Numbered from the stretch's first letter, positions 10,623-64,000 are shown. The stretch: DNA of 64,000 bases from an uncultured Acidobacteriia bacterium (GCA_903909435.1 CAIVVT010000157.1:3183-67182), one strand, 5' to 3'. Notes: generated by a model not told the origin, from the sequence alone. Translations and numbers: made by a program.

Positions 10623-10870
10623 TTGGCCTGGCTCATCAGGCGGCGCGCCGGCTTCGAGGCGCGCCTGCGGGGCAGGGGAGGGAGATCTCCCCGAGGTAGC
10701 CTTCCGGATTGGCGCTCAACGTGCCATCAGGGACGCCTGAGAAGCACTGGCCGGCTCCAGTCCGGGTTGTGAAGTTCGCCGAACGAGTTGGCCCGACTTG
10801 CCTGGGTGGTTTGCCGCGCGCGGCTCAGTCAGCAGCACGAGTCACCGGTCAAGTCAGAAAGAGTTTAGCG

Positions 10871-13800: not shown

Positions 13801-16311
13801 ATGTTGAAGATGAACCGGTTAGTTGCGAAACTGATAGCCCCCGCGGCGATGTTGGCCGTGCTGCTGGCGCTGGCGCCACCCGTCGCGGCGCGGACCAAGA
13901 AAGGGGACAAACTTGCCGCCGAAGGGCTCAAGTTCGAAATGCAGCGGCAGTTTGACGAGGCGCTGGAGAAATACGAGCTTGCGCTCGCTTCCGACACCTC
14001 GGACATCAACTACCAGTTGATGATCCGCCGAGTGCGCTTCCAGGCCGGGCAGATGCACGTAAACGCCGGTTTGAAGCTGCGAACCGACGGCAAGCTCGAT
14101 GAGTCGCTGGCGGAGTTCAACAAGGCCTATACGATCGACCCGTCGTCCACTTCCTCCGAGCAGGAGCTTCGCCGTACGCTGCGCATGATCGAACGCGAGA
14201 AGCAGCGCCGGCAGCAAACCGGGGCGGAACTCGAACATCCGCAAGACAAGGGACTGACTCCCTCCCAGGTAGCGCGGAAAGAGTCCGAGCAGCGCGAGGC
14301 GGATATGACCGCCCCGCCTGAACTGAAATCGACCTCCAATCAGGCCCTCGACCTGAAGATCTCGAACCAGCCCGTGAGGACGCTCTACGAGACGGTGGGC
14401 AAAATGTCGGGACTCAATGTCCTGTTCGACTCCGACCTGCCGGTTGAACCGAACAAGAAGCTCTCCCTGGATCTGAAGAACTCCCAACTCGACGAAGCGC
14501 TCGATTACATCGCCCTGCTCACCCACACCTACTGGAAACCCGTCTCGGGAAATACCATTTTCGTGACGCAGGAAAGCGTCACCAAGCGCCGCGACTACGA
14601 GGACCACGTCACCCGCGTTTTCTACCTCAACAACATCACCTCGGCTCCGGAACTGCAGGAAGTCATGACCGCGGTCCGCACGGTCACTAACGTGCGCAAC
14701 ATCTTCCCGGTCAGCTCGCAGAACGCACTCGTAATCCGCGGCACCGCCGATCAGATCGCGCTGGCGGAGAAGATCATTCTGGACATCGACAAGCCCAAGT
14801 CCGAAGTGCTGGTGGACATGATCGTGATGGAGGTCAACGGGGATAAGACCCGCCAACTTGCAGCCACGGTTGCTCCCGGCGGCCTGAACATGTCTGCGAG
14901 TTCAACCCCCTCGGGCGGAACTTCGGTCACACTGAAGAAGCTCGGCAGTCTCGGGCTTGGCGATTGGACCACCACCATGCCCAGTGCTCTGCTGCAAGCT
15001 GCCTTGAGCGACACGCGCGCCAAGATCCTCACTTCGCCTCAACTGCGCGGTGTCGAGGGCCAGAAGGCGAGTCTCAAGATCGGCGACCGCTATCCCTACG
15101 CTTCGGGCAGTTTCTCTTCTCCCACCGCCAACACCAGCGGTGTCGCGTACGCGCAGACCCAGTTTCAGTTCGCCGATATCGGCGTGAATCTGGACCTCAC
15201 GCCGCGCATTCACGGTGCGGATGAAGTGACTCTGCAGGTCGAGTTCGAAATCTCGAACATCAGCCAGACCATCGACGTCGGCGGCGTATCCCAGCCTGTC
15301 ATCGGGCAGCGCAAAGTGAACCACATTATTCGCCTGCGGGAGGGCGAGGCCGCACTCATCGGCGGGTTGATGCAGGTCACGCAGACTTCCACGAAGAGCG
15401 GTTGGCCGGGTTTGATGGACATCCCGATCCTTGGGAAGTTGTTCACGAAATCGAATGTGGAGAACAAGACCGAGGACCTGCTGGTGGTGCTGATCCCGCA
15501 CATCATGCGTTCGCCCGATCTGACCGCCGCCAACATACGTGCGGTGGCTTCAGGCAACGACCAGATTTGGAAGGTCAACTACCGGCACCAGGCCGCTCCG
15601 GCCGGGTTGAAGCCGGGTGGGGCGCAAGACAAGGCTGCGCAGCCGGATGCCCAGCCGCGAGCCAGTGTCCCTGTGGCGACTGGTGCAGTCGTAGCCGGGC
15701 CTCCGCTCAACGCGGTGGCTCCCGTGCCCCCGCCACCGCCCGTTCAAGAAACTCCCGCCGCCGCACCCGATGCCCCGGCCCCGCCACCGACCGGCGCTCC
15801 CGGAGAGCTCTCCAGCCCGCCTCAGCCGGGCGAGGTGCCCCTGACGGCAATCAGCCCCGAACTGAAGGAGCCCGCCCAGCCCGCCCCAGTGCCGCCCGGA
15901 GCCGGGGTGGCGATGGTGGTCTCCGCGGCCGAGATCGCTCCAGGAGCCACCGTCACAGTGCAGGTGAACGTGACCAATGTGAAAGACCTCAGCGCCGCGC
16001 CCATGCGCTTGAAGTACGACGCCGCCGTGCTGAAGCTGGTCGAGGTCAAAGCGGGCGGCTTCCTTGGGGAGCTAGGCAAGCAGGTCATCTTCTCCGAAGT
16101 GCGCTCGCGACAGGGCGGGGAATCTAAAATCCAGCTGCAGCGCCTGGCCGGGGCAGGCGGCGTGGATGGTTCTGGTACTCTCCTCACGCTGAAATTTGAG
16201 GCAAAGAGCGCCGGTACCGCATCGATATCAGTGGTTGATTTCAGTCTGCGGGACTCCAAGCTCCAGTCGATTCAGGCGACTCCGCCGCAGACCTCGGTTG
16301 TCGTGAAGTAG
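13801..16311 (+). CDS. Secretin (GspD/PilQ family) with N-terminal TPR-like region, Pro-rich linker and C-terminal cohesin-like domain
   Basis: Secretin core is GVNLDLTPRI...VSQPVIGQRKVNHIIRLREGEAALIGGLMQ...GWPGLMDIPILGKLF...EDLLVVLIPHIM. The Pro/Ala linker spans about 15590-15900. The C-terminus ATVTVQVNVTNVKDLSAAPMRLKYDAAVLKLVEVKAGGFLG...GSGTLLTLKFEAKSAGTASISV is cohesin-like. Confidence 0.85.
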   Translation: MLKMNRLVAKLIAPAAMLAVLLALAPPVAARTKKGDKLAAEGLKFEMQRQFDEALEKYELALASDTSDINYQLMIRRVRFQAGQMHVNAGLKLRTDGKLDESLAEFNKAYTIDPSSTSSEQELRRTLRMIEREKQRRQQTGAELEHPQDKGLTPSQVARKESEQREADMTAPPELKSTSNQALDLKISNQPVRTLYETVGKMSGLNVLFDSDLPVEPNKKLSLDLKNSQLDEALDYIALLTHTYWKPVSGNTIFVTQESVTKRRDYEDHVTRVFYLNNITSAPELQEVMTAVRTVTNVRNIFPVSSQNALVIRGTADQIALAEKIILDIDKPKSEVLVDMIVMEVNGDKTRQLAATVAPGGLNMSASSTPSGGTSVTLKKLGSLGLGDWTTTMPSALLQAALSDTRAKILTSPQLRGVEGQKASLKIGDRYPYASGSFSSPTANTSGVAYAQTQFQFADIGVNLDLTPRIHGADEVTLQVEFEISNISQTIDVGGVSQPVIGQRKVNHIIRLREGEAALIGGLMQVTQTSTKSGWPGLMDIPILGKLFTKSNVENKTEDLLVVLIPHIMRSPDLTAANIRAVASGNDQIWKVNYRHQAAPAGLKPGGAQDKAAQPDAQPRASVPVATGAVVAGPPLNAVAPVPPPPPVQETPAAAPDAPAPPPTGAPGELSSPPQPGEVPLTAISPELKEPAQPAPVPPGAGVAMVVSAAEIAPGATVTVQVNVTNVKDLSAAPMRLKYDAAVLKLVEVKAGGFLGELGKQVIFSEVRSRQGGESKIQLQRLAGAGGVDGSGTLLTLKFEAKSAGTASISVVDFSLRDSKLQSIQATPPQTSVVVK

Positions 16312-50767: not shown

Positions 50768-53700
50768 TCAATCGTCGCTGTCGCGTTTGGGAGCGCCCGT
50801 ATTGACGACAGACATTGCCTCCAAGTAGAGCCGCTTCTGCGCCTGCTTGTAACTGCGAGCATTCAATCGGTGCTGCTGTGCCGCGGTGGCGTGCAGTTCG
50901 TCAGCCTGGATTGAGAGCCGTGCCAGCATTCCGAGACGAAGGCTGTCGCGATCGGGAGAGGAAGTGTCGAGGCGTGAGGAGAGTCTCCAGATCTTCCCGC
51001 CCTCGGGGTGGGAACGGTATGTCACCGTCCGCGTTGGCGTGAAACTCGCCGCGGGGATCTTGTTGTAAGAGCCCTGGAACAGGTCACGCAAGTCCGTGGC
51101 GATCAGGTCATGAATATTGTTTGGAGGCAGCCCCAGCAGCAACTCCTCCGTCTTGACGATGGAGGCCGTGGAGTAATGGCGCAGCCCGATGTAGCCGGGT
51201 TTGGCGAAGGGGCTCACCACAACAAGGGAGTTGCGGTGCGGGTGGATGTGGTCGAGCGAAGACTGAGAGTCGTCGTAAGTGATGAAGATCGCGCTGCCGG
51301 TATTGGTTGCCGCGTCGTAGTATACGGGGCTTTGCATTATGTGCTGGACGATCATGCCCATGCCGACATCGCCGTCAGCCACCTGTTGCATCGGTCCTGC
51401 GGTGACCACTGACTTGTTAGGCGCCTGAACACCGCCCGTGTGGTCGTTGGGCACATAGATGTAAAGCAACTGCGGCAGGGTATCGGCAGCGAGCATGTTG
51501 TCGAAGTCCTGAATGAACTCCTGCGCCCGGCGCTGGTCAGAAATGTTGAAGTTGTAACCAGGGTAGTTGCGGTCCAGGCGAGGCTCGCCATTGGAATTAC
51601 GGCCTCCGAGAATCGCCAGAACCGGCAGGGAGAGGAAGTACGACTGGCCCAGCCCGAGCGTAGGCGAATCGACATCGCCGACATTCTGCAGCGGCACAAC
51701 CAAGCTCGCATTATCGGCCTGCAGGGCAGGATAGCCGAGCTTCCCGCTGGGTTGGTCATTCAGCGTTGTCGGCGCGCTCGACCCAGTATCCGTTCCCTCG
51801 ATGCGGATCAATGCACCGTAGTCTTTGAAACTGACGCCATTGCGCGCCGCATTGTTGAAGATGTATCCACTCTCCGGGTAGTCCTCGGGCTCGAAGTTCT
51901 TGTTGACCAACAGGCCCCGCCCGCTCTTCACCAGTAGCGTCTTTTCGGTGTAATCCGTGGCGGTGCCGGAAGCGCAGAACTGGTGGCCAGCATCACTTTC
52001 TTCCGAGTCGGAGTAGAAGTTTGCGGCGGTGGCGAAGTTCGTCGCCAGCCACTGGTAATTCAGCGATACGCCAGTGTATTGCTTGTTTGTATAGGGTTTG
52101 CCGGTCTTGTCGTTGAAGGTCGTGCTGGCAAACACTCCGAAATGGCCGGCTTGATTGCCCAGCATGGAATCGAACGTCTTGTTCTCATGGAGGATGAAGA
52201 AGACGTGCTTGATCTTCTGGGAAGCACCGCCGCCGGCCGGAACTACTGAAGTGTCCGAGGGCGAGTTCAGGGCGAAGTTGTTCGCCAGTACGGTCGTGTT
52301 ATCCACAATCGTGGATTTCAGGTTGACCTTCTGAACTGTGCCAAACATGTAGTTGCTGTCGACTCCGCTGAATGACGCAACTCCCGTCGTTGCGGCAGCC
52401 TGGGTCGTATCGGTAGCGGGATTGATGTCCTCCGCGATGCCCTTGGCCGAGGCAATGTAGAGCGCGCTGCCATCCTGGCTGACGGCCAGCGCCGAGGGAA
52501 ACCACGCGGTAGGAATGCGGCCAAGTATGGCGGGCTTGAGCGGATTCGTCACGTCGAGCACGGCTACAGAATTCAGACCGGCTTCGGCAACGTACAGGCG
52601 GGTGTTGTCCGGAGACACGCTCAGCGCATTCGGATACGTCCCGTGGATCTTCGAGCGGGAGGATTGGTTCTGAAAGGTGAGTGGTGATAGGTCGAAGTCG
52701 GGCAGCTTCCTGGCATTGTGAACCAGCATCATGCCTAGGCTGTCGTCGTTGGACTTGGCAACGAAGAGTACCTCGATGTCGCCCTTGCGCACAATCGCGG
52801 TCGCCGAGGGGTGAGTTCCGCCGACCTGGCTCTCGGCGTCGATGTCGGTGCCGTGGTAGATCGAGCCCAGCGGTTCCAGCAAGGCCCCATTGCCGCCCGG
52901 TGCGGCGAGGATGGATACGGAAGAGGTCTTGGGTGCCGGACCGCTGGTATCGGTCACAGGGACATAGAAGCCACCGGGCTGATTCACTCCGCCGTCAAAG
53001 AAGCCATCCAACGCGCCTCCGCCCGTTGGAGAGAGCGCTACGAGATTGCCGTTCGAGTCGTACTGCGGGTTCGCGAACTTGTATGCGGTGACTCCCCAAT
53101 TGGATACCATAACCCGGTCGCCGGCCTTGCTGACTGAGACGGAGTAAGGGAAGTAGCCAACCGGGATCTGTTTTACCACCGACATCGCGGCCGTATCAAT
53201 CACGGCTACACTGTTGTCTCCGTTGCAGGCGACATACAAGAACCTACCATCTGGACTGAGTGCCGAACCGGCGGGGAAGCTGATGTGATCGCCAGAGCGG
53301 GACATTCCTGAAGGAACGGGTGGCAGGTTGCCGTTGGCATCCTTGGTCGTGAACGCCGCGGAGGGCGCATGGTTGCTCACAAACCCCGCGTTGTTCGGCG
53401 TGATCGGGGTGATCACGACATGCGCTGGAGTAGCGGCGGAGATCGTGCCAGTCGAGGAAATCGTGTAGATCTTGACGTCGTTGTCGGGCCCACCCGAAGC
53501 CCATACTGTGTAAGGGCCCGCGCCGGTGGCCTGCAGGCCGATGAAGTATGCCCCGGTAGCAATGGAGGAGACGACGGCCATGCTCGAAGTGTCCACGACC
53601 GAGAGCGAGTAGAAGCCCGAATTGGCCGTACTCTGGAGCGAAGCGAACCCGCCCTCGCGTTCGTCGTCGTTAGTCGTCACCAGGTATCGACCATCCGGCG

Positions 53701-54010
53701 TTAAGGCAAGTCCGAGAGGATTCATGCCGACTTGCGCCACCGTGCCCGCCGGCTTGATGATGCGGCCGTTGGGCAGAACGCCATTGTAGTAGCTGCCGAA
53801 TTTGCTCGGCCCAGCGAAGAGTTCCGCCGCCGAGAAGACTCCCTTTTCAGAGGTGCCGTATACGGGTGCGGTGATTGCCCCCCAGTTCGTCACATCGATT
53901 ACCGGACTCTGCGCGTATCCAACCGGCACAACCAGTGCGGCGGCCAGAAGAATGGAAACTACCCCGCGCAGGGGACGGAAGCTGAGATTACTCGCTTTGC
54001 TTTGATTCAT
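50768..54010 (-). CDS. Secreted beta-propeller (YncE/YVTN-like) fused to phosphoesterase (phospholipase C/acid phosphatase family) domain
   Basis: ORF 50768..54109; ATG 54010 gives signal peptide MNQSKASNLSFRPLRGVVSILLAAALVVPVGYA. It has repeated 'SPDG..LYVA...NSVAV.D' blades. KIKHVFFILHENKTFDSMLG and later DHTG motifs are typical of the phosphoesterase family. Confidence 0.8.
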   Translation of the reverse strand: MNQSKASNLSFRPLRGVVSILLAAALVVPVGYAQSPVIDVTNWGAITAPVYGTSEKGVFSAAELFAGPSKFGSYYNGVLPNGRIIKPAGTVAQVGMNPLGLALTPDGRYLVTTNDDEREGGFASLQSTANSGFYSLSVVDTSSMAVVSSIATGAYFIGLQATGAGPYTVWASGGPDNDVKIYTISSTGTISAATPAHVVITPITPNNAGFVSNHAPSAAFTTKDANGNLPPVPSGMSRSGDHISFPAGSALSPDGRFLYVACNGDNSVAVIDTAAMSVVKQIPVGYFPYSVSVSKAGDRVMVSNWGVTAYKFANPQYDSNGNLVALSPTGGGALDGFFDGGVNQPGGFYVPVTDTSGPAPKTSSVSILAAPGGNGALLEPLGSIYHGTDIDAESQVGGTHPSATAIVRKGDIEVLFVAKSNDDSLGMMLVHNARKLPDFDLSPLTFQNQSSRSKIHGTYPNALSVSPDNTRLYVAEAGLNSVAVLDVTNPLKPAILGRIPTAWFPSALAVSQDGSALYIASAKGIAEDINPATDTTQAAATTGVASFSGVDSNYMFGTVQKVNLKSTIVDNTTVLANNFALNSPSDTSVVPAGGGASQKIKHVFFILHENKTFDSMLGNQAGHFGVFASTTFNDKTGKPYTNKQYTGVSLNYQWLATNFATAANFYSDSEESDAGHQFCASGTATDYTEKTLLVKSGRGLLVNKNFEPEDYPESGYIFNNAARNGVSFKDYGALIRIEGTDTGSSAPTTLNDQPSGKLGYPALQADNASLVVPLQNVGDVDSPTLGLGQSYFLSLPVLAILGGRNSNGEPRLDRNYPGYNFNISDQRRAQEFIQDFDNMLAADTLPQLLYIYVPNDHTGGVQAPNKSVVTAGPMQQVADGDVGMGMIVQHIMQSPVYYDAATNTGSAIFITYDDSQSSLDHIHPHRNSLVVVSPFAKPGYIGLRHYSTASIVKTEELLLGLPPNNIHDLIATDLRDLFQGSYNKIPAASFTPTRTVTYRSHPEGGKIWRLSSRLDTSSPDRDSLRLGMLARLSIQADELHATAAQQHRLNARSYKQAQKRLYLEAMSVVNTGAPKRDSDD

Positions 54011-54422
54011 CCGGTTTGTCCTTTCAGGCGGTCCGCGGTTGCTTTCTCTGAAGCTCGCGCCGCGCGTGCTGACCCGCAGCACGCCGTGTAGACGATAGCG
54101 TGGTGACATGAATCTGAGATTAGGGATCGGTTACTACTGTGTATATACGCTTAACATCGTGATCGCATCCGATCCGCCGATTGCTTGACGAGTAATCGAA
54201 GAGGTACTTCCGTGGTGGGCGCGAAGAGCCTCGACCACTGGTTCTCAGCGATCGCCCAGGTTAGCGCACGCTTACGGTCGCTTCATGGCCAGCGCTATGG
54301 GCAGACGCTACGTGCCCGACTGGAGGGGTTGAGGTTGGATGATTGATAGTGCTGTACCTGCTGATTGTGCTCTATTTGTGATCCAGGATTAACTTCGCTT
54401 TGGCAGACTGAACGCTTATCTG

Positions 54423-57404
54423 ATGTCCCCGGAGGTCGGTGTGCGTCTGTTCCCGTTCGTCTGCGCCATTCTTGTTCTGGCGGCACAAATGGATGCCCAG
54501 TCCGGCCGCTCAGCGCTTACCGGCACGGTTCGTGATCAAAGCGGCGGGTTCATTCCGTCGGCGGTGGTGCGGGCCGTACAGCCGGCTACTGGACTAGTGC
54601 GAGAGACAGTCACCAACAATGAGGGCAACTACCAGATCGGAGGGATGCCCGTTGGCCGTTACCGGATCACAATCGCCAAAGCCGGGTTTGCTCCGCTCAG
54701 TTTCGAGGAGGTGGATCAGCCGATTGGGCTGACTCGAACGCTTGACGCGACGCTTACAGTCGCCGGTAAGGGGGACCAAGTGGCCGTTGTGGCGTCCCTC
54801 GTGCAACTTGACCAGACGACCGCTTCGCTGGGCGGTCGTATCGAGCGGCAGCAGGTCGCAGGGTTGCCCTTGAATGGACGCAATTGGTCGGGCATGACGG
54901 CATTGGTCCCGGGAGCGATAGACTCCGGCGGCAGCAACATGAAATCCATCCGCTTCGCTGGCCGTGCGCTCGACGACAACAACTTCACGTTGGATGGTGT
55001 AGACGCGACCGGCGTTCTCAACCAGGCCCAGCGCGGGCAAGGACGATTGACGATTCCAACCGAATCGATTTCGGAATTCCGCGTCGAGTCGATGCTCTAC
55101 GCGTCGGAGCTGGGCGGAGCCGCGGGAGGGCAGGTGTCCATCGCCTCGCCTTCCGGCACGAACCAGTTTCATGGCAGCCTGTTCGAATACTTTCGCAACG
55201 ACGTCCTCAACGCTCGCACACCCTTCGACCCGGCCGAGCGCCCGCCTTTCCGCTTGAACCAGTACGGCGGCAGTTTAGGTGGGCCGATCGCGCATGACCG
55301 AACATTCTTTTTCGTCGATTACGAGGGCTATCATCAGCGATTGGGGCAAACGCTGACAGGCTTCGTGCCAAGCGACGCTTTCCGCAGATCGGCCGTCGAT
55401 TCTGTTGCCCCCATTCTCACAACCTACCCGGCGGGAAACGGGCCCCTGGTTGACCCAAATATAGCGACTTACCGATTCCAAGGATCGCAAAACGTCGATG
55501 AGAACACAGGCATGGCGCGTGTGGATCACAGCTTTCGAGGTAGCCTAACCGGATTCGTGCGATACAACGTGGACGAGGCTTTGTCGCATGTACCTATAGG
55601 CAACATCGGGCTCCGGCAGAACATCGACACGCAGCCGCAAAACGGCGTTGCCGAAATTCTCCATACGTTATCGCCGCGAATGACAAATGAATACAAATTC
55701 GGGTTCAATCAGGAGATCACGCACACAGTGAATCGCTCGCCGCTGGCATACACGATTTCAGCTCCTGGGTTCAGTCCCATTACGGCCGGGTCTACTAAGG
55801 ATGAACGAGGCGCGACACTATCCGGAATCGACAACCTGAGTCTGGTGCGCGGCCGTCACGTGCTGAAAGCCGGCGTCGAGTTGCGCTATGTGGAGATGGG
55901 CCAGGGGAATTCATTCAGCGGCACGATAACGTACTCCACGCTGGCAAATCTAGCGGCGAACAAGCTTGACAAGGGTACCCAAACCGCATTACTGCCGATG
56001 AAGCATCAGCGCAAGACGCAGGTTTTCGCCTACGTGCAGGACGAATACAAACTCACGCCTAACCTCACTCTCAACATGGGATTGCGTTACGAGTTTTACA
56101 ACGTGTTCCACGAGACCGAAAATCGTGCAATTCCATTTGACTTTGCGACATGCGGGCCGCCAGGCTACTGTGCTCGAGGCAGTGACTTCACATTTCCGAA
56201 TCTCCATGACCTCGACCCGCGCGTTGCGCTGGCTTGGTCTCCAAAAGTACTCAAAGGAAGAACGGTGGTTCGAGCGGGAGCAGGCATCTACCACGGGGAC
56301 GGGCAACTCGACGACCAGAACCTGCCGATCGCTAACGACGTGCACAGGTACAGCCTGACGCGGGTCAGTTTTCCCTCGTTATCCTATCCGATCGATTCGT
56401 ATCTTCAGCAAGCAACGGGTGTGGTGACGCCGCGGTTGCTCGATCGCAAGCGCAAGGACATGTACGTAAGCCAGTGGGGGGTATCCCTGCAACAGGATCT
56501 CAGCCATAGCTTGATGGGCACGCTTTCGTATGCGGGCAGCAAAGGCACAGACTTGTTGACGACCAGCGATGTAAATGCCATCAACCCGGCGACCGGTGCA
56601 CGACCATATCCAAACTTCGGGATCGTCGAATACCGGGGCAACACGAGTAACAGCGACTACAACGCGCTCCAACTCTCCGCACAGCGGTACTTCCAGCGGG
56701 GGCTCTCGCTCGGTGCGAACTACATGTGGTCGCACTCGATCAACGACGGTTCGATTGGCGGAGGCGAAGCCGTCTTCCCGCAGTTCCTGAATTGCCGGGC
56801 GTGCGAACGCGCATCGAGCGACCAGGACGTAAGGCACGTGTTCACGACCAATTCCGTTTATTCACTGCCCTTCGGACAGGGTAGGCGTTACCTGGGTGCC
56901 CGTAGCATCGGGCGAGTGTTGCTGGGCGGTTGGCAACTCGCGACCATCGCCTCGGCGCGCAGCGGGTTGCCGGTCAACGTAACCGTGGATCGCGGTTCGA
57001 GCGACCTGATTGACGGGTACAATACGAATCAACGCCCGAACATATTACCAGGTGTTGCACTGACGCCGGCGGACGGATCGTCACCGGGCCTTTGGATCAA
57101 CCCGCTGGCCTTCGCAGTGCCCGCAAATGGCGCCTGGGGCAACGCAGGCCGCAATCTGGTGCGTGCACCGCCGGCTTGGCAAGTGGATCTAAACCTCAGC
57201 CGGAGGATCCCGGTTACGGAGACGGCCAGTTTGCAGGTCCGCGCTGAAGTGTTCAATCTATTCAATCACCCGCAATATGGCTCTCCTCTCGCGGACATTT
57301 CCGCACCATCAACCTTCGGTCGAATAACAACACTGGTCAACACCGGACCCACAGGAACCAGCACACCCCGCCAGATTCAATTTGCTTTGCGGTTGGGGTT
57401 CTGA
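54423..57404 (+). CDS. TonB-dependent receptor with N-terminal carboxypeptidase-regulatory-like domain
   Basis: LTGTVRDQSGGFIPSAVVRAV...TNNEGNYQIGGMPVGRYRITIAKAGF is CarboxypepD_reg-like. It also has a plug region, a long beta-barrel, and a C-terminal ...PRQIQFALRLGF with terminal aromatic residue. Confidence 0.85.
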   Translation: MSPEVGVRLFPFVCAILVLAAQMDAQSGRSALTGTVRDQSGGFIPSAVVRAVQPATGLVRETVTNNEGNYQIGGMPVGRYRITIAKAGFAPLSFEEVDQPIGLTRTLDATLTVAGKGDQVAVVASLVQLDQTTASLGGRIERQQVAGLPLNGRNWSGMTALVPGAIDSGGSNMKSIRFAGRALDDNNFTLDGVDATGVLNQAQRGQGRLTIPTESISEFRVESMLYASELGGAAGGQVSIASPSGTNQFHGSLFEYFRNDVLNARTPFDPAERPPFRLNQYGGSLGGPIAHDRTFFFVDYEGYHQRLGQTLTGFVPSDAFRRSAVDSVAPILTTYPAGNGPLVDPNIATYRFQGSQNVDENTGMARVDHSFRGSLTGFVRYNVDEALSHVPIGNIGLRQNIDTQPQNGVAEILHTLSPRMTNEYKFGFNQEITHTVNRSPLAYTISAPGFSPITAGSTKDERGATLSGIDNLSLVRGRHVLKAGVELRYVEMGQGNSFSGTITYSTLANLAANKLDKGTQTALLPMKHQRKTQVFAYVQDEYKLTPNLTLNMGLRYEFYNVFHETENRAIPFDFATCGPPGYCARGSDFTFPNLHDLDPRVALAWSPKVLKGRTVVRAGAGIYHGDGQLDDQNLPIANDVHRYSLTRVSFPSLSYPIDSYLQQATGVVTPRLLDRKRKDMYVSQWGVSLQQDLSHSLMGTLSYAGSKGTDLLTTSDVNAINPATGARPYPNFGIVEYRGNTSNSDYNALQLSAQRYFQRGLSLGANYMWSHSINDGSIGGGEAVFPQFLNCRACERASSDQDVRHVFTTNSVYSLPFGQGRRYLGARSIGRVLLGGWQLATIASARSGLPVNVTVDRGSSDLIDGYNTNQRPNILPGVALTPADGSSPGLWINPLAFAVPANGAWGNAGRNLVRAPPAWQVDLNLSRRIPVTETASLQVRAEVFNLFNHPQYGSPLADISAPSTFGRITTLVNTGPTGTSTPRQIQFALRLGF

Positions 57405-57560
57405 CCCACAGCGTGAAGCGGGGGCTCGCCGACGCCCAATAGCCTCCAAGTCCGGCTTCATTGCGATCTGGGTGCGGGACGTCAGCCGCGCTGCACAGTG
57501 CGCTGCGAAAAGCTGCCAGAGTAACTGAGAGAGTCACCAACGGACTTGGCGCGGGCTCGC

Positions 57561-58211
57561 TTAATCCAGTAGTTTCAGCTTTATGTTTCGGAAGGTGATC
57601 TCGTAGCCTTCCGCTTCCAGGCCGAGGTATCCTCTGCGCAGGGCGATTCCCTCTATCTCGTTCACTAGCATGCCGTTGACCGAGAGCGTGATCTTGTCGC
57701 CCTGTACGCCCACTTCGTAGAGATTCCATTCGCCGGCCGGTTTTACCCGGTTTTCTTTCATCTGCTTGATCAAGTTAAATGACCCGATGGCTCCAGCTGT
57801 GAGGTTGGTTCCAAACAGATAGCCTCCTGTGGGACCAGTTTGTGCCTGCACCCATAGCTCTCCGAATCTCGACAGCCGCACTCCGATGCCACTGTTGTAT
57901 TTCTTGGGCTCTTCGGCTCTTGGAGTGAAGCGCCATTCCACCTGAAGCACGAAATCGCCGAGTTCCTTGTCGTAGCGGAGCCATTCGTGGCCACCCTCAC
58001 CGGTGCAGATCAACGTCTGCTCAGCTGCGTCAACGCGCCACTGCAGTTTGGGTTTCAGCCCATCCACCGGTGGGATCGGAATGCGGATCCAGCCTTTCAG
58101 GCTTTCATCCGGGAGGATGCTGACCCAGTCGCCTGCCATGGCGACGCCGGAGCATAGGAGAATTCCGAGGGGTATCGTGCAGGCAATTCGGGCAAGGAGA
58201 TTCAGTCGCAT
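57561..58211 (-). CDS. DUF1080 (3-keto-disaccharide hydrolase / LamG-like) domain protein
   Basis: Signal peptide; W......W.V.....L...........L.Y...GDFVLQVEWR..., GYLGLEAEGYEITFRNIKL is the typical C-terminus. Confidence 0.8.
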   Translation of the reverse strand: MRLNLLARIACTIPLGILLCSGVAMAGDWVSILPDESLKGWIRIPIPPVDGLKPKLQWRVDAAEQTLICTGEGGHEWLRYDKELGDFVLQVEWRFTPRAEEPKKYNSGIGVRLSRFGELWVQAQTGPTGGYLFGTNLTAGAIGSFNLIKQMKENRVKPAGEWNLYEVGVQGDKITLSVNGMLVNEIEGIALRRGYLGLEAEGYEITFRNIKLKLLD

Positions 58212-58417: not shown

Positions 58418-60082
58418 CTACGTTTCAAGAAAACAGGCCGGAACGAACGAAATGTCGCTTGCCTCCCGCACAGCCAGCCGGATCTGCGATTCGAGGATGT
58501 CGCGGGGCACAGGATTGCGATAGTCCCGAAGGGCTTCAGCTATGGCGGCAAACGGATCCAGGCTGGTGGTCCGTGAGATGCGGTAAATCTTGACCGCTAA
58601 AGCCTCCGCAGCGCCAGGCGTCAGCAGCGCAGGCACCACGGTTTCGATGGCAGCGAAACTGCTGTCTCCGATCTCCATGCCGCGCGCACGGCAAAGTGCC
58701 TGGATCAGATCGAAGCCCTCTCTCGCCGTGGTCGTGGGGAACAGCGGGATCTTTACGTCGATACGTCCGGGGCGCTTCAGATCGACCTCGATCAGGTCGG
58801 GGCGGCTTGAGGCGAGAACCCAGATGATCTTGCCGCGGTTGCCGCTGCGCCCCATCTCCTCAGCGAGCATCGAGTAGACGCGCCCCGAAACGCCAGAATC
58901 GCTGGTTGCTGAGTCGCGCCGGCCCAGCGCCTGGTCGGCCTCGTCCACGAACACGTAGCAGCGCCCAAGGGCGTGAAGCAAACGGAAGATCTTCTCGAGA
59001 TTGCCTTCCGTGGAGCCTACCCACTTGTCGCGGAAGTTCTTCATCTTGACGATGGGCACTCTGGCTTCTCCGGCCAGACATTCGACCAGGAAAGTTTTGC
59101 CCGTGCCGACCGGACCGCAGATCAAGTAGCCCTTTGGAAGCGCATTCAGGTCGCTCTGCGCCCACAGCGTGAGGTCCTGGCGTAGCCACGCCTTCACCTT
59201 CTCCAGCCCATAGAGGTCGTCAAGCGTGCGCTGAGGCTCGATGAATTCAATCAGCCCGTTACAGTCATTCTCGACGATCGACTTCTTGAGACTCACGACA
59301 TCGCCCGAATCGAGCTTCCTTCTGACATGCGCCTTGGCCAGGATCGTCCGCTCCACCGCCCCGAGCGTCGCGCCGGTGAGCTGTGCCGCAACCGCGGGGA
59401 TGGCCCCCTCATCGACGACGCCAGGATGCTGCGCCGCCAGCAATTCCAACGCGCTGCCGAGGTGTTCCGTTATCGGAAGCGGCACCCGGATTCGAGAGGT
59501 GCGCAAGTTGTTGGCCACCAGCGGATGCAGGTCGTGCAGGTTCTCGCAAACCAGGAATGTCGCCAGCGTGTGCCCCGTCAACAGGTCTTCGTTGGCCCAG
59601 TCGCGGATGAGCGTGACCATGGCGCCTAATTCATAGTCCGTCGATGCCGGCGTTGCCGGCATCACAAGATCCGCGCCAAATACGATGCAGGCAACTTGCA
59701 GCCGCGCTTGGTTGAGGCGTGCCAGGTTGGCGCAATACCGGAAGTAGTGCGTCAGCAGATCGACGGCCGCCCGGGGCGCTCGGGGCAAGGCCGGCGCGTC
59801 CTTCATGTTTGGCCAGTTGGAAAACGTCTGGCCGCCTTTGTCGATCCTGATCCCGCTGCCCAGATCGTAGGAGAGCACGACGTCGAAGCGCGGAAGTAGA
59901 ACATCCAGCAGGAAGCTCTTGAGGTCCCCGATGCGCGGCTCGAGCGCCGCTGGAATCAAGATGCGATCCTGAACGTCGCCATGGACGATGAATTGGTTGG
60001 AAGCGTTGCTTTCGTAAAGCTCGATGAGTTCGACCGCCCAGGCCGGCAGGAGCGGCGCGACTTTGGTCTCGCTCGCGGCCAC
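58418..60082 (-). CDS. Two-lobed AAA+ ATPase: degenerate N-terminal lobe + classic-clade AAA module
   Basis: Walker A ICGPVGTGKTF, Walker B CYVFVDEADQ, second-region-of-homology-like DLKRPGRIDVKI. The N-terminal ~280 aa (…NQFIVHGDVQDRI…) have no P-loop. The GTG start overlaps the upstream stop (TAGTG). Confidence 0.85.
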   Translation of the reverse strand: MAASETKVAPLLPAWAVELIELYESNASNQFIVHGDVQDRILIPAALEPRIGDLKSFLLDVLLPRFDVVLSYDLGSGIRIDKGGQTFSNWPNMKDAPALPRAPRAAVDLLTHYFRYCANLARLNQARLQVACIVFGADLVMPATPASTDYELGAMVTLIRDWANEDLLTGHTLATFLVCENLHDLHPLVANNLRTSRIRVPLPITEHLGSALELLAAQHPGVVDEGAIPAVAAQLTGATLGAVERTILAKAHVRRKLDSGDVVSLKKSIVENDCNGLIEFIEPQRTLDDLYGLEKVKAWLRQDLTLWAQSDLNALPKGYLICGPVGTGKTFLVECLAGEARVPIVKMKNFRDKWVGSTEGNLEKIFRLLHALGRCYVFVDEADQALGRRDSATSDSGVSGRVYSMLAEEMGRSGNRGKIIWVLASSRPDLIEVDLKRPGRIDVKIPLFPTTTAREGFDLIQALCRARGMEIGDSSFAAIETVVPALLTPGAAEALAVKIYRISRTTSLDPFAAIAEALRDYRNPVPRDILESQIRLAVREASDISFVPACFLET

Positions 60083-60912
60083 TACTGTGCCTCCGTGGTT
60101 CCGGTCGTCTTGGCAAGCGGCGCTCCGAAGGCGTGATCGAGGTCCGAAACCGCCGACTGGGATTCACCGAAGATCGAGGCGCCCGCGAGGTTGGTAGCCA
60201 ACTCGATGTCGGTGGCGATCGTCTGGGGCTTGCCTTGGATAATCGCGTTCTCGATCATCAGGTCCAGTTGCGCTTCGATTCGAGTGAGGTCGCTCTCGAC
60301 CTCCTCGGTCGATTGTGCGCGGCGCGCTATGTTGGCGAGGCGCTCGCGCAGGATGTTGATGGTCGCTGTCCGAGACTGCCGCAGCGAGTCCGAATCGCTT
60401 GCGTCCTTGTTCCCCGCAGTTAGCAGCTCAATGCGTTTCTGAAGGTCCACTTCGGTTTCGGCGCTCTTGGTCGAGAGTAGATTGTGCTCCGCGACCAGAA
60501 GTTTGAGATAGACCCATTCCAGCCGCCATAAGGCGTCTCTATTCGCCTCGAGCACAAACTCGTCGGCCTGCTGGTTGCGAAAGATCTCGGACACCTGGCG
60601 GCACTTCGCGGAGAGTCGAAGGAGTCGTTGCTGCGACTCTGCCGGGAGAGTCGTGATCAGCAGTCGGCGTTTCTGCTCGGCATCGTTTTCGTCGAGTCGC
60701 ACGTCAGCCGCTTCGACCAACTTCTGAAAGCGCGGATTGGTCGCAAGCAGGAAGAGCAGGGCGGTTTCCAGGCCTACCCCCAGCAGCCAGAACGTGGGCT
60801 CGGCGAATCCCAGGATTCCCAAGCCGACGACGCCCAATAAGTTCACAGGTACCTGCCCCAGAGCCGGCACCGGCACTCTTAAGAAGAACGCGGCTTTGAT
60901 ATAACGCAACAC
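60082..60912 (-). CDS. 2-TM membrane protein with long cytoplasmic coiled-coil, hypothetical
   Basis: Hydrophobic helices are VNLLGVVGLGILGF and FWLLGVGLETALLFLLA. They are followed by ~200 aa of heptad-like, charged sequence. Confidence 0.65.
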   Translation of the reverse strand: MLRYIKAAFFLRVPVPALGQVPVNLLGVVGLGILGFAEPTFWLLGVGLETALLFLLATNPRFQKLVEAADVRLDENDAEQKRRLLITTLPAESQQRLLRLSAKCRQVSEIFRNQQADEFVLEANRDALWRLEWVYLKLLVAEHNLLSTKSAETEVDLQKRIELLTAGNKDASDSDSLRQSRTATINILRERLANIARRAQSTEEVESDLTRIEAQLDLMIENAIIQGKPQTIATDIELATNLAGASIFGESQSAVSDLDHAFGAPLAKTTGTTEAQ

Positions 60913-60950
60913 GTCAATGAAGGCAGTCCGTCAACAGGCTCTCGACGCCT

Positions 60951-61724
60951 TCAGTTCTGTTCCGGGAGGCCCGGTTCCCGGGTCTTGGCCGGGCCCATTG
61001 AACGGGTGGATGGGTCGGCGACCGGGTTGCCCGGAGTGGGGGATTCGAGCGTGATGCCTTCCTTTGCTGCGAAGTCGGCCAGAGCCTGATCCTGGAGTGC
61101 GTGCGTCTCGGCTTCCTTCACCTCGACCTGCGACATGTCCATTGAGTCGCGCGCCACGCGGACGCGGCCAGCGGCCTTTTCACGCTCCGATTCGACCATC
61201 CCCGACAAGCGGTCCAGGGTGTCGCCCGCGCCTCCGATCTGCGACACCATGCCGGAAGCCATCTCGGTCAACTCGGCCATGGCACGCTTCATCTTCAGGT
61301 CGCTGATGCCGGCTCGGAGGGTCTCAATCTTTGCTTTGGCCGTAGACACGGCCACGTCCCGGGAACGGATCAGCTCTTTGTAGGTCGTCTCGGCCTGCTC
61401 CAATTGCCGCCGGTTCTCTTCGAGTTCGCGCTCGACTGTCTGCAGTCGCAGGGCATACTGCCCCGCGGCATCGCGATTGCCGGCCCGCAGATTGGCGCCG
61501 GCCTTGGCGCGCAGATCCCGCTGCTCGCTCTCCTGTTTCCGCACCTGCGTCATTAGCCGCTCGCACAAGCCTGCGTGTGATACCAGACCCTGGTTGTACT
61601 GTGCAATCTGCTTGCGCAGGTTCTCAGTTTCCACTTCAAGGAGTGCTTCCGGATTCTGCTTTTCAAGGCCTGAAATGAAAAGGCTCAGGAAGCCACGGAA
61701 CAAATTCGCGATTCGGTTGAACAT
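60951..61724 (-). CDS. pspA: PspA/IM30 family protein (bacterial ESCRT-III superfamily)
   Basis: ORF 60951..61748; ATG 61724 gives MFNRIANLFRGFLSLFISGLEKQNPEALLE..., the typical PspA amphipathic N-terminus. It has a long coiled coil with ...A..AL..G..DLA..AL-like pattern (LRAGNRDAAGQYALRL), then a Pro-rich ~45-aa tail. Confidence 0.85.
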   Translation of the reverse strand: MFNRIANLFRGFLSLFISGLEKQNPEALLEVETENLRKQIAQYNQGLVSHAGLCERLMTQVRKQESEQRDLRAKAGANLRAGNRDAAGQYALRLQTVERELEENRRQLEQAETTYKELIRSRDVAVSTAKAKIETLRAGISDLKMKRAMAELTEMASGMVSQIGGAGDTLDRLSGMVESEREKAAGRVRVARDSMDMSQVEVKEAETHALQDQALADFAAKEGITLESPTPGNPVADPSTRSMGPAKTREPGLPEQN

Positions 61725-61760
61725 ACAGTCAAAACTCCCGCGCTCCACTCACAACACCCA

Positions 61761-62963
61761 TCATCTGCCCGCCTGCGTCCGCTGCCAACTGGTCAGCAGA
61801 TTGTTCACGACCTCGGCCCGGGGCGGCTCGCAGATCCTGCCCACGTCAATCTGCACACCGTACTTGGCGAATTGCACGAACGGACTTCCCGGGAACTTTA
61901 CCGGAACACTCGGGTTGCCGGGCCGGAAGCCGTGGATCAACGATTCCTTCTGCACGCGCTCGCTGAGCAGAAAGTCCAGGAACGCCTGTGCGGCCTTACG
62001 CTGCTCCGGACTGCTCCACGTGGCGTTGAGGATGTAGTAGGGCGTGTCGTTCCAGGCGTTGTATTCAGGGTAAACTACCCGCAACTGTCCCCAGCGCCCC
62101 TCGGCGTTCCGCAGGTAGTCCATAGCGACGCTTTCGTAGACCAACAGGGTGTCATAGGATGACGGCCCCTTCAGCACCATCTCGCGCATCATGTTACCCG
62201 TGCTGTCGGAAGTGCCCGCGACGCCGCGTTCCAGTTTCTCCAGCCATTCCTGGAATTGGACGTTGACGATGTCCTTCAGTGTCAGGTCACGCGCCTTTCC
62301 TGAATACGAGTACGCCGCCAGAACCAGAGTCATCACGCCCGAGTTCGATTGATTGGGCTGCGTATGGCCAAATTTGAAGAACCCCCACTCAGGCTTGGCC
62401 GCAATCGCCTCCCATCCGCCCTTCTGCTGCTGAGCTTCGGCGATCGTGGCAAAGGAAAGCTTCTGGTACTTCTTCACAAACTCCACATAGCGCTCCTCCC
62501 ACATGACGAACACCATCGGGGTCAGGGCCAACGGCTCTTCCCGCACGATCGGGTTAGTGTTGTACTTCAGCTGCCAGTCCGTGACGAAGCTCTCCTTGTA
62601 AAGCGAACTTGCGGGCGACCACACGTTGATGCGCTGATCCCCGGCGAGCACGGCACGTGCTCCGTCCAGCGAGCCCATTGGAATCAGATTGATCCCGATA
62701 TCGCGCCCCTGTGAAGTGTTCGCGAACTCGCCGACGGCCCACTCCAGCCAGCGCTTCTTCTCCGTCCCATATGCGATTCCGATTTGCACGGCGGCGCCTG
62801 AGGGGTTCACGGCCACGCCCGCGGTTCCGGCACCGCTCCCGCCGAAGGGCCAACGGATGCCGGCAGTCTTGCCAAAGCGGTAGAACGCACCGGCCAGGCA
62901 GGCTGCGACGAACAGAAAAATGAACAGTTTTCCGAGCAGAGTGAGCTTTGGTCCGTCAGCCAT
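61761..62963 (-). CDS. TM-anchored periplasmic substrate-binding-protein-like protein
   Basis: N-terminal anchor LLGKLFIFLFVAACLAGAF, then a PBP-type fold pattern (...INVWSPASS..., ...FGHTQPNQSNSG..., ...HGFRPGNP...). It is paralogous to the N-terminal half of the next gene. Confidence 0.65.
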   Translation of the reverse strand: MADGPKLTLLGKLFIFLFVAACLAGAFYRFGKTAGIRWPFGGSGAGTAGVAVNPSGAAVQIGIAYGTEKKRWLEWAVGEFANTSQGRDIGINLIPMGSLDGARAVLAGDQRINVWSPASSLYKESFVTDWQLKYNTNPIVREEPLALTPMVFVMWEERYVEFVKKYQKLSFATIAEAQQQKGGWEAIAAKPEWGFFKFGHTQPNQSNSGVMTLVLAAYSYSGKARDLTLKDIVNVQFQEWLEKLERGVAGTSDSTGNMMREMVLKGPSSYDTLLVYESVAMDYLRNAEGRWGQLRVVYPEYNAWNDTPYYILNATWSSPEQRKAAQAFLDFLLSERVQKESLIHGFRPGNPSVPVKFPGSPFVQFAKYGVQIDVGRICEPPRAEVVNNLLTSWQRTQAGR

Positions 62964-62971
62964 TGTGTCCT

Positions 62972-64000
62972 CTAAAAGAAGGTCGAAACGTCGCGAAATA
63001 CGCTGACAATGGTGTCCGGATTGCCTTCGTAGGACTTGGCCTGAGTTGCTTCAGCAAGCTGCCTCAACAGGTCCTTGCGCGCATCCCGGCCGTAGGCAAT
63101 GGTGAAGACCCGGATCGTGTTGGTCTCCCCGTTAAAGCGGACCAGTTCCAACAGCTTGTCGAACCGAATTTTGCTGTTGGTATCCTCCCCGTCCGTGAGC
63201 ACCACAACAGCCTGTATCTTCTTGCCTTCGCGGCGACTGGTCTTCAGCAGCCTGTAGGCTTCCTCAATCGAATCGTAAAGATTCGTTTCGCCGCCTGCGA
63301 AGAGGGACTCGATCTGCGCGTTCGCCTTCCGCTTGCCGTCCGGCCCCATCGGGGTATTTTGAATGGCCCAGGCGTAGCCCGTATTGAACGGGAGGAACGA
63401 CAGCGTGTCGGCGTCGCTCATGATCGATATGAATTGCTTCGCGCCGCGTTTCGCATTTTCGAGTTTGCCCTGCTCATTCATACTGCCAGACGTATCGAGC
63501 ACGAGCACCACCTCGGAGGTCTTCTTCTTCGTTTGCCAGAGCTTGAGGATTCTATCGATAACCTCGACCGCGGGAACTTCAAGCGTGGTCTTCGGTTCGC
63601 TCGGGTCGATTCCATGCTCCGGATCCAGTGGCGCTCCCGCCTTCACATCGACGGATGCGGGGCGGAAGCCATATGTCAGGGCCCGTTCCTGTTGCGGCTT
63701 TTCGAGCAAATAGTGGATATACAGCGCCGCCGCTTCCCTGTGCTCTGGAGTTACCCAGTCCCTTTCGACAATACCGATTGGATGATCGCTCCAGAACGTA
63801 CCCTCCTTCGGGTAGATGGCAACCACGGGGAAGGCGAGGCTCTTCTCAGCGTAGGACTCCACTACCATGCTCTCGTAAAGCACAGCGGCGGAAAGATACT
63901 CGGGGCCGTTAGCGAACATCCTGCGGCCGAAAAACCCGGTGGAACTGCCGTAGTGCACAACCGATTGCTCAATGGCGCCGACGAATTCACCCGTCGCCGG
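62972..64000 (-). CDS. SBP-like domain fused to C-terminal VWA domain (5' end outside window)
   Basis: The frame stays open to nt 64000 (…PATGEFVGAIEQSVVHYGSS…). The SBP-like part ends in YGFRPASVDV. VWA MIDAS is VLVLDTSGSM ... GGETNLYDSI ... VLTDGEDT. Confidence 0.75.
   Translation of the reverse strand, partial: PATGEFVGAIEQSVVHYGSSTGFFGRRMFANGPEYLSAAVLYESMVVESYAEKSLAFPVVAIYPKEGTFWSDHPIGIVERDWVTPEHREAAALYIHYLLEKPQQERALTYGFRPASVDVKAGAPLDPEHGIDPSEPKTTLEVPAVEVIDRILKLWQTKKKTSEVVLVLDTSGSMNEQGKLENAKRGAKQFISIMSDADTLSFLPFNTGYAWAIQNTPMGPDGKRKANAQIESLFAGGETNLYDSIEEAYRLLKTSRREGKKIQAVVVLTDGEDTNSKIRFDKLLELVRFNGETNTIRVFTIAYGRDARKDLLRQLAEATQAKSYEGNPDTIVSVFRDVSTFF

Follow-up and report, generated by a model that had tools for sequence, protein, structure and literature searches.

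A PspA gene linked to a Cdc48/Afg2-like tandem AAA ATPase in an acidobacterial five-gene operon: a candidate ATPase partner for bacterial ESCRT-III

Gene content and layout of the operon

We analysed a stretch of 64,000 nucleotides of DNA from an uncultured soil Acidobacteriia bacterium (GCA_903909435.1, CAIVVT010000157.1:3183-67182), hereafter the window, along whose whole length all positions are counted unless another contig is named. Translation of its open reading frames (ORFs) revealed five co-directional genes on the minus strand, from position 58418 to past 64000, which bring together a member of the PspA/IM30 family (hereafter PspA) and a two-domain AAA ATPase. In transcription order, they encode a fusion of a solute-binding protein (SBP)-like domain and a VWA domain (SBP-VWA; 62972-64000, the 3' 343 codons of a gene that runs off the window), a paralogous SBP-like protein anchored by a transmembrane (TM) helix (SBP; 61761-62963, 400 residues), PspA (60951-61724, 257 residues when counted from an ATG that is also the start codon in public gene calls, with a GTG further upstream at 61748), a helical protein with two TM segments for which we coined the name TMCC (60082-60912, 276 residues), and the ATPase (58418-60082, 554 residues). 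The genes are separated, in the same order, by gaps of 8, 12 or 36, and 38 nucleotides, and the stop codon of TMCC overlaps the start codon of the ATPase in a TAGTG legible directly in the sequence, suggesting coupled translation and a fixed stoichiometry of these two proteins. A preliminary description, made from the sequence of the window, had reported this tight packing, including the gaps and the overlap, and all of it is present.

An exact-sequence search retrieved identical DNA on 17 public metagenome contigs, which supply the start of SBP-VWA missing from the window; the complete gene (L001 8253-9992) encodes a product of 579 residues. On these contigs, a gap of 280 nucleotides separates SBP-VWA from a divergent TonB-dependent-receptor-like gene, and the downstream neighbour of the operon is a DUF1080/3-keto-disaccharide hydrolase gene. 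The operon therefore consists of exactly five genes. In agreement with the preliminary description, we detected none of the canonical psp partners: domains of PspF, PspB, PspC and Lia proteins (LiaI/LiaF) are absent from the five products and from the 10 kb on either side. A Pfam scan likewise found no ABC ATPase, permease or OmpA domain in the operon or its flanks, and no protease or downstream quality-control partner was seen in the operon. Promoter and terminator scans of the operon yielded only chance-level signals, and a k-mer search in 32 orthologous upstream regions found neither an operator nor a sigma-54 element, the sole k-mer recovered being a -10-like TACAAT present in 13 of them.

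A tandem AAA ATPase with an inactive, conserved first domain

The C-terminal half of the ATPase, D2 (58418..59242, minus strand; residues 281-554 plus the stop codon), is predicted to be an active AAA module of the classic clade. It carries a Walker A motif (GPVGTGKT, residues 323-330), a pore loop 1 (KWVG, 353-356), a Walker B motif (D380-E381) and arginine fingers (RPGR, 437-440), all of them invariant or nearly so in 118 aligned homologues. The GPVGTGKT, VFVDEAD and RPGRID motifs from which the preliminary description had recognised a classic-clade module are all found in the translation, and the Pfam AAA family PF00004 matches with E=2e-22, at residues 320-446 only. PF00004 is the sole Pfam family on the protein, on which the MIT and Vps4_C domains and the MoxR-type families AAA_3 and AAA_5 gave no match.

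The N-terminal half, D1 (59243..60046, minus strand; residues 13-280), had been described as a degenerate lobe devoid of P-loop. It indeed carries QFIVHGDVQDR at the position of GPPGTGKT, and both Walker A and Walker B have been lost. The AlphaFold2 model of the ATPase (mean predicted local distance difference test, pLDDT, 80.8; predicted template modelling score, pTM, 0.72) was aligned by Foldseek over 574-600 columns with the D1-D2 tandem of Afg2/Drg1, Cdc48/p97 and Rix7 (E ~1e-19 to 1e-21). Given this full-length D1-D2 structural match, the N-terminal half corresponds to a D1 with an AAA-like fold. Despite its missing P-loop, D1 is not decaying: it is strongly conserved, with a mean column identity across phyla of 0.68 versus 0.62 for the D2 lid. 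It is also specific to this family, since among 1.84 billion representative proteins only 528 match it at E<=1e-3, and nearly all the full-length matches measure 530-610 residues. The ATPase family as a whole includes 6911 database clusters at E<=1e-10, the best 120 of which are 62-100% identical to the window protein over their full length.

Placement of the ATPase within the AAA clades rests on the ranking of hidden Markov model (HMM) scores together with the fold ranking. The closest solved relatives of D2 by sequence were VAT, Afg2 and the D2 of Cdc48. Among NCBIfam models, CDC48 came first (72 bits), followed by FtsH (66), PAN (56) and CdvC/Vps4 (40), all far under the family cut-offs, which are 803 bits for CDC48 and 650 bits for CdvC. 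We conclude that the protein is a Cdc48/Afg2-like tandem AAA ATPase without N domain and not a member of the Vps4 family. In the preliminary label of Vps4/Cdc48-style ATPase, the Vps4 part has to be abandoned, because the protein has no MIT or Vps4_C domain, is built as a tandem and reaches only 40 of the 650 bits required by the CdvC model. Nor is it Cdc48 proper, because it lacks the N domain, has a dead D1 and scores below the cut-off. With the group formed by Cdc48/p97/VAT, Afg2/Drg1 and Rix7, which provided both its best sequence matches and its best full-length structural matches, it shares the D1-D2 tandem, a second region of homology (SRH) with arginine fingers and an aromatic pore loop, whereas it differs from them by the absence of an N-terminal double-psi-barrel, by a D1 without Walker A and B and by a length of only 554 residues.

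PspA and its conserved tail

The product of 60951-61724 matches the PspA_IM30 family (PF04012) with E=7.7e-13 and 49 bits, above the curated cut-off of 33.9, along profile positions 2-216 of 220, so that its preliminary identification as a PspA stands. All 17 orthologues tested from different phyla also match PF04012 and no other family. The protein has an N-terminal amphipathic helix, MFNRIANLFRGFLSLFISGLEK, and reads MFNRIANLFRGFLSLFISGLEKQNPEALLE over alpha0 and the (D/N)PE..L start of alpha1 that follows it, a sequence colinear with the N-terminus of Escherichia coli PspA. In an alignment of the 68 PspA proteins encoded beside an ATPase of this family in our genome scan (see below), the N-terminal helix is nearly invariant (MFKRL.NL.RGF.GLFISGLEK.NPEALLE), and an invariant helix, EQ.ALADQALADFAAKEGI, closes the Pfam domain. 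The helix motif ALADFAA (61065..61085, minus strand; residues 214-220) is identical in 17 out of 17 orthologues and conserved in the 68 loci.

Beyond this helix, the ATPase-linked PspAs continue with a Pro/Ser/Ala-rich linker of 15-25 residues and variable sequence, and then with a short motif, K[ST]MGP, located a few residues before the C-terminus. In the window, this motif reads RSMGP (60990..61004, minus strand; residues 241-245). Although the linker varies, K[ST]MGP occurs in nearly all of the 68 proteins, across phyla, and it is kept as QKTMGP in a PspA encoded beside an ATPase only 31% identical in D1. ESCRT-III proteins offer their MIT-interacting motifs (MIMs) to Vps4 by way of a flexible linker and a conserved end peptide, and many AAA+ substrates display initiation tags in the same form. 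By analogy, we infer that the PspA tail is a candidate recognition or threading signal for the ATPase.

A helical protein with a hydrophobic hairpin

TMCC, encoded between PspA and the ATPase, starts with a hairpin made of two short hydrophobic helices (residues 23-35 and 40-58, that is, 13 and 19 residues long) and continues with ~215 residues of helices; both termini are predicted to be cytoplasmic. In the alignment of its homologues, of which we detected 928, two polar residues inside the hydrophobic helices, N24 and E49, are invariant. Instead of truly spanning the membrane twice, the segment 23-58 may form a re-entrant or monotopic hairpin, and its buried Glu may be functional.

TMCC has no Pfam or NCBIfam match and belongs to no known family. 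Its AlphaFold2 model (pLDDT 74) is all-helical; Foldseek returned nothing at E<0.1, the best matches, from E 0.17, being generic BAR or coiled-coil folds with no ESCRT-III chain among them, and a profile search of PDB sequences found nothing. We considered whether TMCC could be a divergent Snf7 or PspA. Among 117 members, none matched the Snf7 or PspA Pfam families at E<=1, and what appeared was just coiled-coil noise (Spectrin_4, KwaB). With hhalign, the comparison to the PspA family of the locus gave P=0.06-0.08 over 47 columns, placing TMCC residues 124-170 on the start of PspA alpha1, and that to E. coli PspA gave P=0.32. As Pfam, PDB profile, hhalign and Foldseek searches revealed no clear relationship, we did not accept this identity. 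In the Lia system, the 2-TM protein LiaI anchors LiaH, and the 2-TM protein of the window could anchor PspA similarly; TMCC is most likely a membrane anchor or receptor for PspA and/or the ATPase.

An exported pair of solute-binding-like proteins

The first two genes of the operon encode paralogous proteins (150 bits). In Pfam searches, the 400-residue SBP matched SBP_bac_11 (1.1e-12) and SBP_bac_8 (1e-7), and the truncated SBP-VWA matched VWA (3e-14) and SBP_bac_8 (1e-6) as well as VWA_2 and VWA_3. The complete SBP-VWA consists of a signal peptide with a lipobox-like ...VGC-K, an SBP-like domain and a VWA domain whose metal-ion-dependent adhesion site (MIDAS) is intact (DTSGS...T...TDG in the translation), and both the intact MIDAS and the TM-anchored paralogue had been correctly noticed in the preliminary description. 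In nearly all SBP-VWA orthologues, the protein starts with a signal peptide whose end is a lipobox-like ...G/A-C-K/N with a conserved Cys, and the MIDAS of the orthologues reads DxSGS in 54 of 62 proteins and TDG in 54 of 54. Because of its signal peptide with lipobox, SBP-VWA is predicted to be an exported lipoprotein.

The SBP has a short conserved cytoplasmic N-terminus (MADGPKLT.LGK), one conserved TM helix and a periplasmic SBP-like domain. No other product of the operon has conserved parts on either side of the membrane at once, which makes the SBP the most plausible link from periplasm to cytoplasm. Searches for relatives of solved structure retrieved none for the SBP and matched SBP-VWA through its VWA domain only, so that no ligand can be inferred for either SBP. 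Together, the two proteins form a periplasmic accessory module that occurs in Terriglobia and in some Verrucomicrobiota and probably senses or tethers something in the envelope. In a Deltaproteobacteria metagenome-assembled genome (MAG; L034 6160-10607), SBP-VWA is encoded downstream of the ATPase, not upstream of PspA, and the locus has neither TMCC nor the second SBP; the accessory module can therefore be rearranged.

Conservation of the gene linkage

We scanned one genome per species with two D1-specific motifs and found the ATPase family in 243 species. The best 80 loci, which span Acidobacteriota, Planctomycetota, Verrucomicrobiota, Abditibacteriota, Armatimonadota, Sumerlaeota, Rokubacteria and Pseudomonadota MAGs, were retained, and their gene architecture was called by searching their six-frame ORFs with the five window proteins. 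Enough upstream DNA to be informative was available for 74 of them, and in 68 of these (92%), distributed over at least eight phyla, PspA lies directly upstream of the ATPase on the same strand. The recurrent linkage anticipated in the preliminary description was thereby confirmed. The complete five-gene order was found in 24 genome loci, plus two cut by contig ends; the five-gene loci belong mostly to Terriglobia, Acidoferrales or Solibacter-like bacteria, together with three Verrucomicrobiota and two MAGs labelled as Pseudomonadota. Seven loci, from Bryobacterales and Thermoanaerobaculia, have PspA, TMCC and the ATPase in this order without SBP genes; in four, from Sumerlaeota and Planctomycetota, a weak relative of TMCC lies upstream of PspA, and in ~30 the PspA-ATPase pair stands alone. 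The SBP genes are missing from most of the PspA-ATPase loci. The pair is thus the universal part of the system, to which TMCC and the SBP/VWA genes are added as accessories in certain lineages only.

A reciprocal scan of metagenomes, seeded from PspA-specific motifs, gave another 80 loci. The five genes follow each other in the same order on 44 contigs; the other 36 contigs are too short to contain all five, and 35 of these hold a consistent contiguous part of the order. The exception, L159, has the AAA gene listed before TMCC, which an overlap of ORF boundaries may explain. The co-conservation of the five genes on which the preliminary description relied was accordingly observed in 24 genomes and 44 contigs, and it does not extend to TMCC and the SBP/VWA pair outside certain lineages. 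The repetition of the same order in dozens of independent genomes and contigs places the arrangement far beyond chance. Soil metagenomes contain hundreds of copies of the window-type operon. All-versus-all clustering of the ORFs did not detect any further neighbour family in more than ~10 of 80 loci; one apparent extra cluster was discarded as antisense shadow ORFs over pspA.

The pair can be followed to distant members of the ATPase family. At 35% identity in D1, the context is still PspA followed by the ATPase. At 31%, the gene order is TerD, TerC, TerD, PspA and ATPase, on a phage-like contig (L172 1898-6620; Logan SRR25158211) that also carries genes for an RNA ligase and an HNH protein beside numerous small uncharacterised ORFs; the PspA encoded there keeps, besides its tail, an ALAKFAA helix. 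Through this locus, the PspA-ATPase pair is connected with membrane-stress genes of the tellurite type and possibly with mobile DNA; a viral-contig scan for this phage-like pair gave nothing. At 26%, a C-terminal fragment of PspA precedes the ATPase.

Two other distant loci have more divergent contexts. In one of them (L173 33-6716; GCA_041306545.1), the genes upstream of the ATPase encode an exported protein of 597 residues that is SBP-like, a VWA protein that carries a signal peptide as well as a TM helix at its C-terminus, a protein combining TM, SBP-like and OmpA parts, and a helical 2-TM protein of 226 residues, the gene of which overlaps the start of the ATPase. The arrangement seems to be a deep analogue of the exported module together with TMCC. 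In the other (L168 390-7472; GCA_046766455.1), an 823-residue family member with an N-terminal extension of ~250 residues is preceded by two FHA-domain proteins, a HEAT-like protein and two uncharacterised proteins; the 275-residue protein encoded directly upstream starts with '...YLEGRANVFLLHGAVGDF', resembling the start of D1, and may be a stand-alone D1-like paralogue. From these varied contexts, the core of the system can be defined as the ATPase and a helical, membrane-directed partner, which is usually PspA and sometimes a 2-TM helical protein, both of them present in the window. Exported SBP, VWA or OmpA proteins are a recurrent accessory module across the ATPase family.

Comparison with known systems

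Ravi et al. (2024, mSystems 9:e00847-23; PMC11237479) described from genomes a class of operons that associate PspA with an 'inactive-classical-AAA + classical-AAA' protein, with examples such as AEY64321.1 (Clostridium) and OGG56892.1 (Handelsmanbacteria). Longer operons of this class may add a TM "Snf7", an ABC ATPase, a permease and a PBPB+OmpA solute-binding protein, and the authors proposed an ATP-dependent remodelling analogous to that of Snf7-Vps4 (PMC11237479, Text S2.2/Table S3). The window locus is a variant form of this operon class and, since Ravi et al. already described the class and proposed remodelling, the idea of remodelling is not new. Both share a PspA gene adjoining that of a two-AAA protein with an inactive N-terminal copy, a TM-anchored helical protein encoded directly upstream of the ATPase and an exported solute-binding (PBPB-type) protein. 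By contrast, the window has no ABC ATPase, permease or OmpA, its gene order is different, and it combines instead an SBP-VWA lipoprotein with a TM-anchored SBP paralogue, the VWA domain occupying the place of OmpA; vWA is not mentioned in the paper of Ravi et al. or its supplement. These authors labelled the TM protein at the position equivalent to TMCC "SIG+TM+Snf7", as a divergent Snf7, a relationship that we could not reproduce for the TMCC of the window. To their prediction, which has not been taken up by the wider field, we add the quantification of the linkage across phyla, a full-length fold like that of Cdc48/Afg2 whose nucleotide-free D1 is under constraint, the K[ST]MGP tail of the ATPase-linked PspAs, the predicted lipoprotein and signal-anchor topology of the SBP/VWA pair, and the replacement of OmpA by an SBP-VWA lipoprotein in an operon without ABC transporter.

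The archaeal and eukaryotic ESCRT-III/Vps4 systems (CdvB/CdvC) resemble the window in having a gene for an ESCRT-III-superfamily polymer beside a gene for a classic-clade AAA protein, a flexible polymer tail that ends in a short conserved motif (compare the MIM) and a K-W-x-G pore loop. However, the window ATPase has two AAA domains instead of one and lacks the MIT domain, the Vps4 beta-domain and the C-terminal helix, and the window polymer belongs to the PspA branch whereas that of ESCRT-III/Vps4 belongs to the Snf7 branch. The two pairings probably arose independently. The Psp (PspF-ABC) and Lia (LiaIH) systems also employ a PspA-family effector and have an AAA+ protein encoded beside pspA, but PspF is a sigma-54 enhancer-binding AAA+ protein with a helix-turn-helix domain and not a classic-clade unfoldase. 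In MoxR-VWA pairs, a MoxR-type AAA+ protein accompanies a cytoplasmic VWA protein, in contrast with the window, where the VWA protein is predicted to be exported and the AAA module matches PF00004 only.

The field has yet to settle whether the ESCRT-III proteins of bacteria (PspA, Vipp1) work with a remodelling partner that consumes energy. A 2025 review stated that a Vps4-like ATPase "appears absent in bacteria", Makarova et al. (2024) considered ESCRT systems to occur in archaea and eukaryotes only, and Liu et al. (2021) left open the existence of an equivalent ATPase. We found no experimental study of a PspA-tandem-AAA pair in the literature searched.

A possible PspA turnover machine

The domain identities, motor residues, D1-D2 fold, reciprocal gene linkage, tail motif and export signals, all of which our analysis showed, lead us to propose that the locus encodes an ATP-driven machine for PspA turnover, bacterial in origin and Cdc48-like in build, a proposal whose chances of being right or wrong appear to us evenly balanced. 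PspA would polymerise on the cytoplasmic face of the inner membrane by means of its N-terminal amphipathic helix. The ATPase would form a hexamer, in which the ring of degenerate, conserved D1 domains could serve as scaffold or docking surface; it would capture the flexible PspA tail and, by threading this tail through the pore loops (KWVG) in D2, extract subunits. This extraction would disassemble, recycle or remodel the PspA polymer, as Vps4 does on ESCRT-III. TMCC would anchor or nucleate the assembly, placing PspA and/or the ATPase at the membrane, and the SBP-VWA/SBP pair would act as a lineage-specific envelope sensor or tether, the state of the envelope possibly being passed inward through the TM helix and cytoplasmic N-terminal peptide of the SBP. 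A wider claim, that at least eight phyla possess an independently arisen functional counterpart of ESCRT-III/Vps4 in which the unfoldase reads K[ST]MGP on a specialised PspA and powers its polymer cycle, and that Terriglobia have wired this engine, with the 2-TM protein as adaptor and by way of the TM-anchored SBP, to the exported SBP-VWA lipoprotein, so that periplasmic sensing of the envelope would govern ATP-driven remodelling of the membrane, is possible, though we hold it to be rather doubtful.

Several observations weigh against the turnover machine. For substrate recognition, the ATPase carries no domain of the MIT or Cdc48-N type that could be recognised. At E<=1, the profile of this PspA subfamily matches none of the solved chains of PspA, Vipp1 or ESCRT-III, and hhalign against E. 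coli PspA gave P=0.36, a comparison of low power given its single-sequence template and the coiled-coil composition; by sequence, the subfamily appears to be a remote, divergent branch of PspA/IM30, and its ESCRT-III fold is putative. Six of the 74 informative loci have no PspA upstream of the ATPase, the 27%-identical family member of L173 (GCA_041306545.1) also occurs without PspA, and a second member with 27% identity has FHA and HEAT proteins as neighbours. The roles given to TMCC, SBP and SBP-VWA derive solely from topology and gene order, and we infer every contact between PspA and the ATPase as well as the direction of action. Finally, the sole PspA-AAA+ pair studied so far, PspA-PspF, runs the opposite way, with PspA inhibiting the ATPase.

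That inhibition, the only PspA-AAA+ relation known from experiment, favours an alternative that we find unlikely, if credible, in which PspA would be a regulator or adaptor of the ATPase and not its substrate. PspA would then silence or target the unfoldase, membrane stress would release or recruit the ATPase, and the clients would be damaged or mislocalised membrane proteins subjected to extraction or quality control of the Cdc48/Msp1/FtsH kind. The Cdc48/Afg2-like fold group does extract and unfold many clients, and the distant family members that occur without PspA are also consistent with this alternative. However, the operon encodes no protease or other downstream quality-control partner, a flexible tail with a conserved short end motif typifies threaded substrates or docking peptides, and a linkage of 92% is very tight.

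The overlap between the TMCC stop and the ATPase start, with the coupled translation and fixed stoichiometry that it suggests, could instead indicate that the ATPase builds and does not dismantle, as an assembly or insertion chaperone priming PspA and/or TMCC for membrane loading or co-polymerisation. 2-TM helical proteins are encoded immediately upstream of family members also in loci without PspA, which would fit such a role. Yet most classic-clade AAA proteins that have aromatic pore loops act as motors of disassembly or unfolding, and TMCC is missing from ~30 PspA-ATPase loci, and we regard this role as improbable.

The two SBP-family proteins of the operon, and the ABC ATPase and permease carried by related operons (PMC11237479), might suggest a solute-sensing or uptake system built around the SBPs, with PspA and the ATPase merely protecting the membrane during transport; but neither a permease nor an ABC ATPase occurs in the operon or its flanks, most PspA-ATPase loci do without SBP genes, and no neighbour family beyond the five genes recurs in more than ~10 of 80 loci, which makes this system very improbable. 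An anti-phage defence system or mobile-element cargo, in which the AAA+ and VWA proteins would act together in a MoxR-VWA or Ietn-like manner, is scarcely believable, as the weak IetA-model matches of the AAA module in PADLOC and the one distant PspA-ATPase pair on a phage-like contig with TerD/TerC, RNA ligase and HNH protein are opposed by the exported VWA protein and the cytoplasmic ATPase, the lack of any MoxR-type AAA_3 or AAA_5 match, flanks of chromosomal housekeeping and nutrient genes in stable synteny, and a viral-contig scan that found nothing. The identity as a defence system was rejected, since PADLOC gave only generic AAA similarity on the ATPase and no match on the four other proteins.

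Turning back to the turnover machine, the PspA-tandem-AAA pair is, in our opinion, the best genomic candidate for an ATPase partner of bacterial ESCRT-III, and the locus represents a compact and very widespread version of the system predicted by Ravi et al. Mutations could be directed at the motif in the PspA tail, at the KWVG pore loop and the Walker B residue, at the conserved surface of D1 and at the MIDAS, and the existence of a bacterial ESCRT-III ATPase thereby becomes directly testable. Should the ATPase indeed take PspA assemblies apart, Cdc48-like ancestors would have given rise at least twice to ATP-driven cycling of ESCRT-III, and the operon would offer a tractable minimal system for polymer-driven membrane repair.

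Neighbouring genes and other features of the window

The genes flanking the operon are chromosomal housekeeping or nutrient genes with stable synteny. The downstream flank, at 50768-58211, encodes a 1113-residue phosphoesterase/beta-propeller-like protein, a 993-residue TonB-dependent-like protein with CarboxypepD_reg and an outer-membrane-protein barrel, and the DUF1080 protein; the upstream flank, past the window, encodes a second such TonB-dependent-like receptor and a Phosphodiest enzyme. The flank genes of both sides are not co-conserved with the operon in other genomes. Elsewhere in the window, a plus-strand segment at 10709-12525 encodes a 385-residue VWA-domain protein followed directly by a sortase (PF04203, 3.5e-30); the two resemble a sortase with its target and have no relation to the PspA operon. 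Further along the same strand, at 13801-16311, lies the gene of an 836-residue secretin (Secretin, Secretin_N, STN and TPR domains) with a C-terminal cohesin domain, an unusual fusion.

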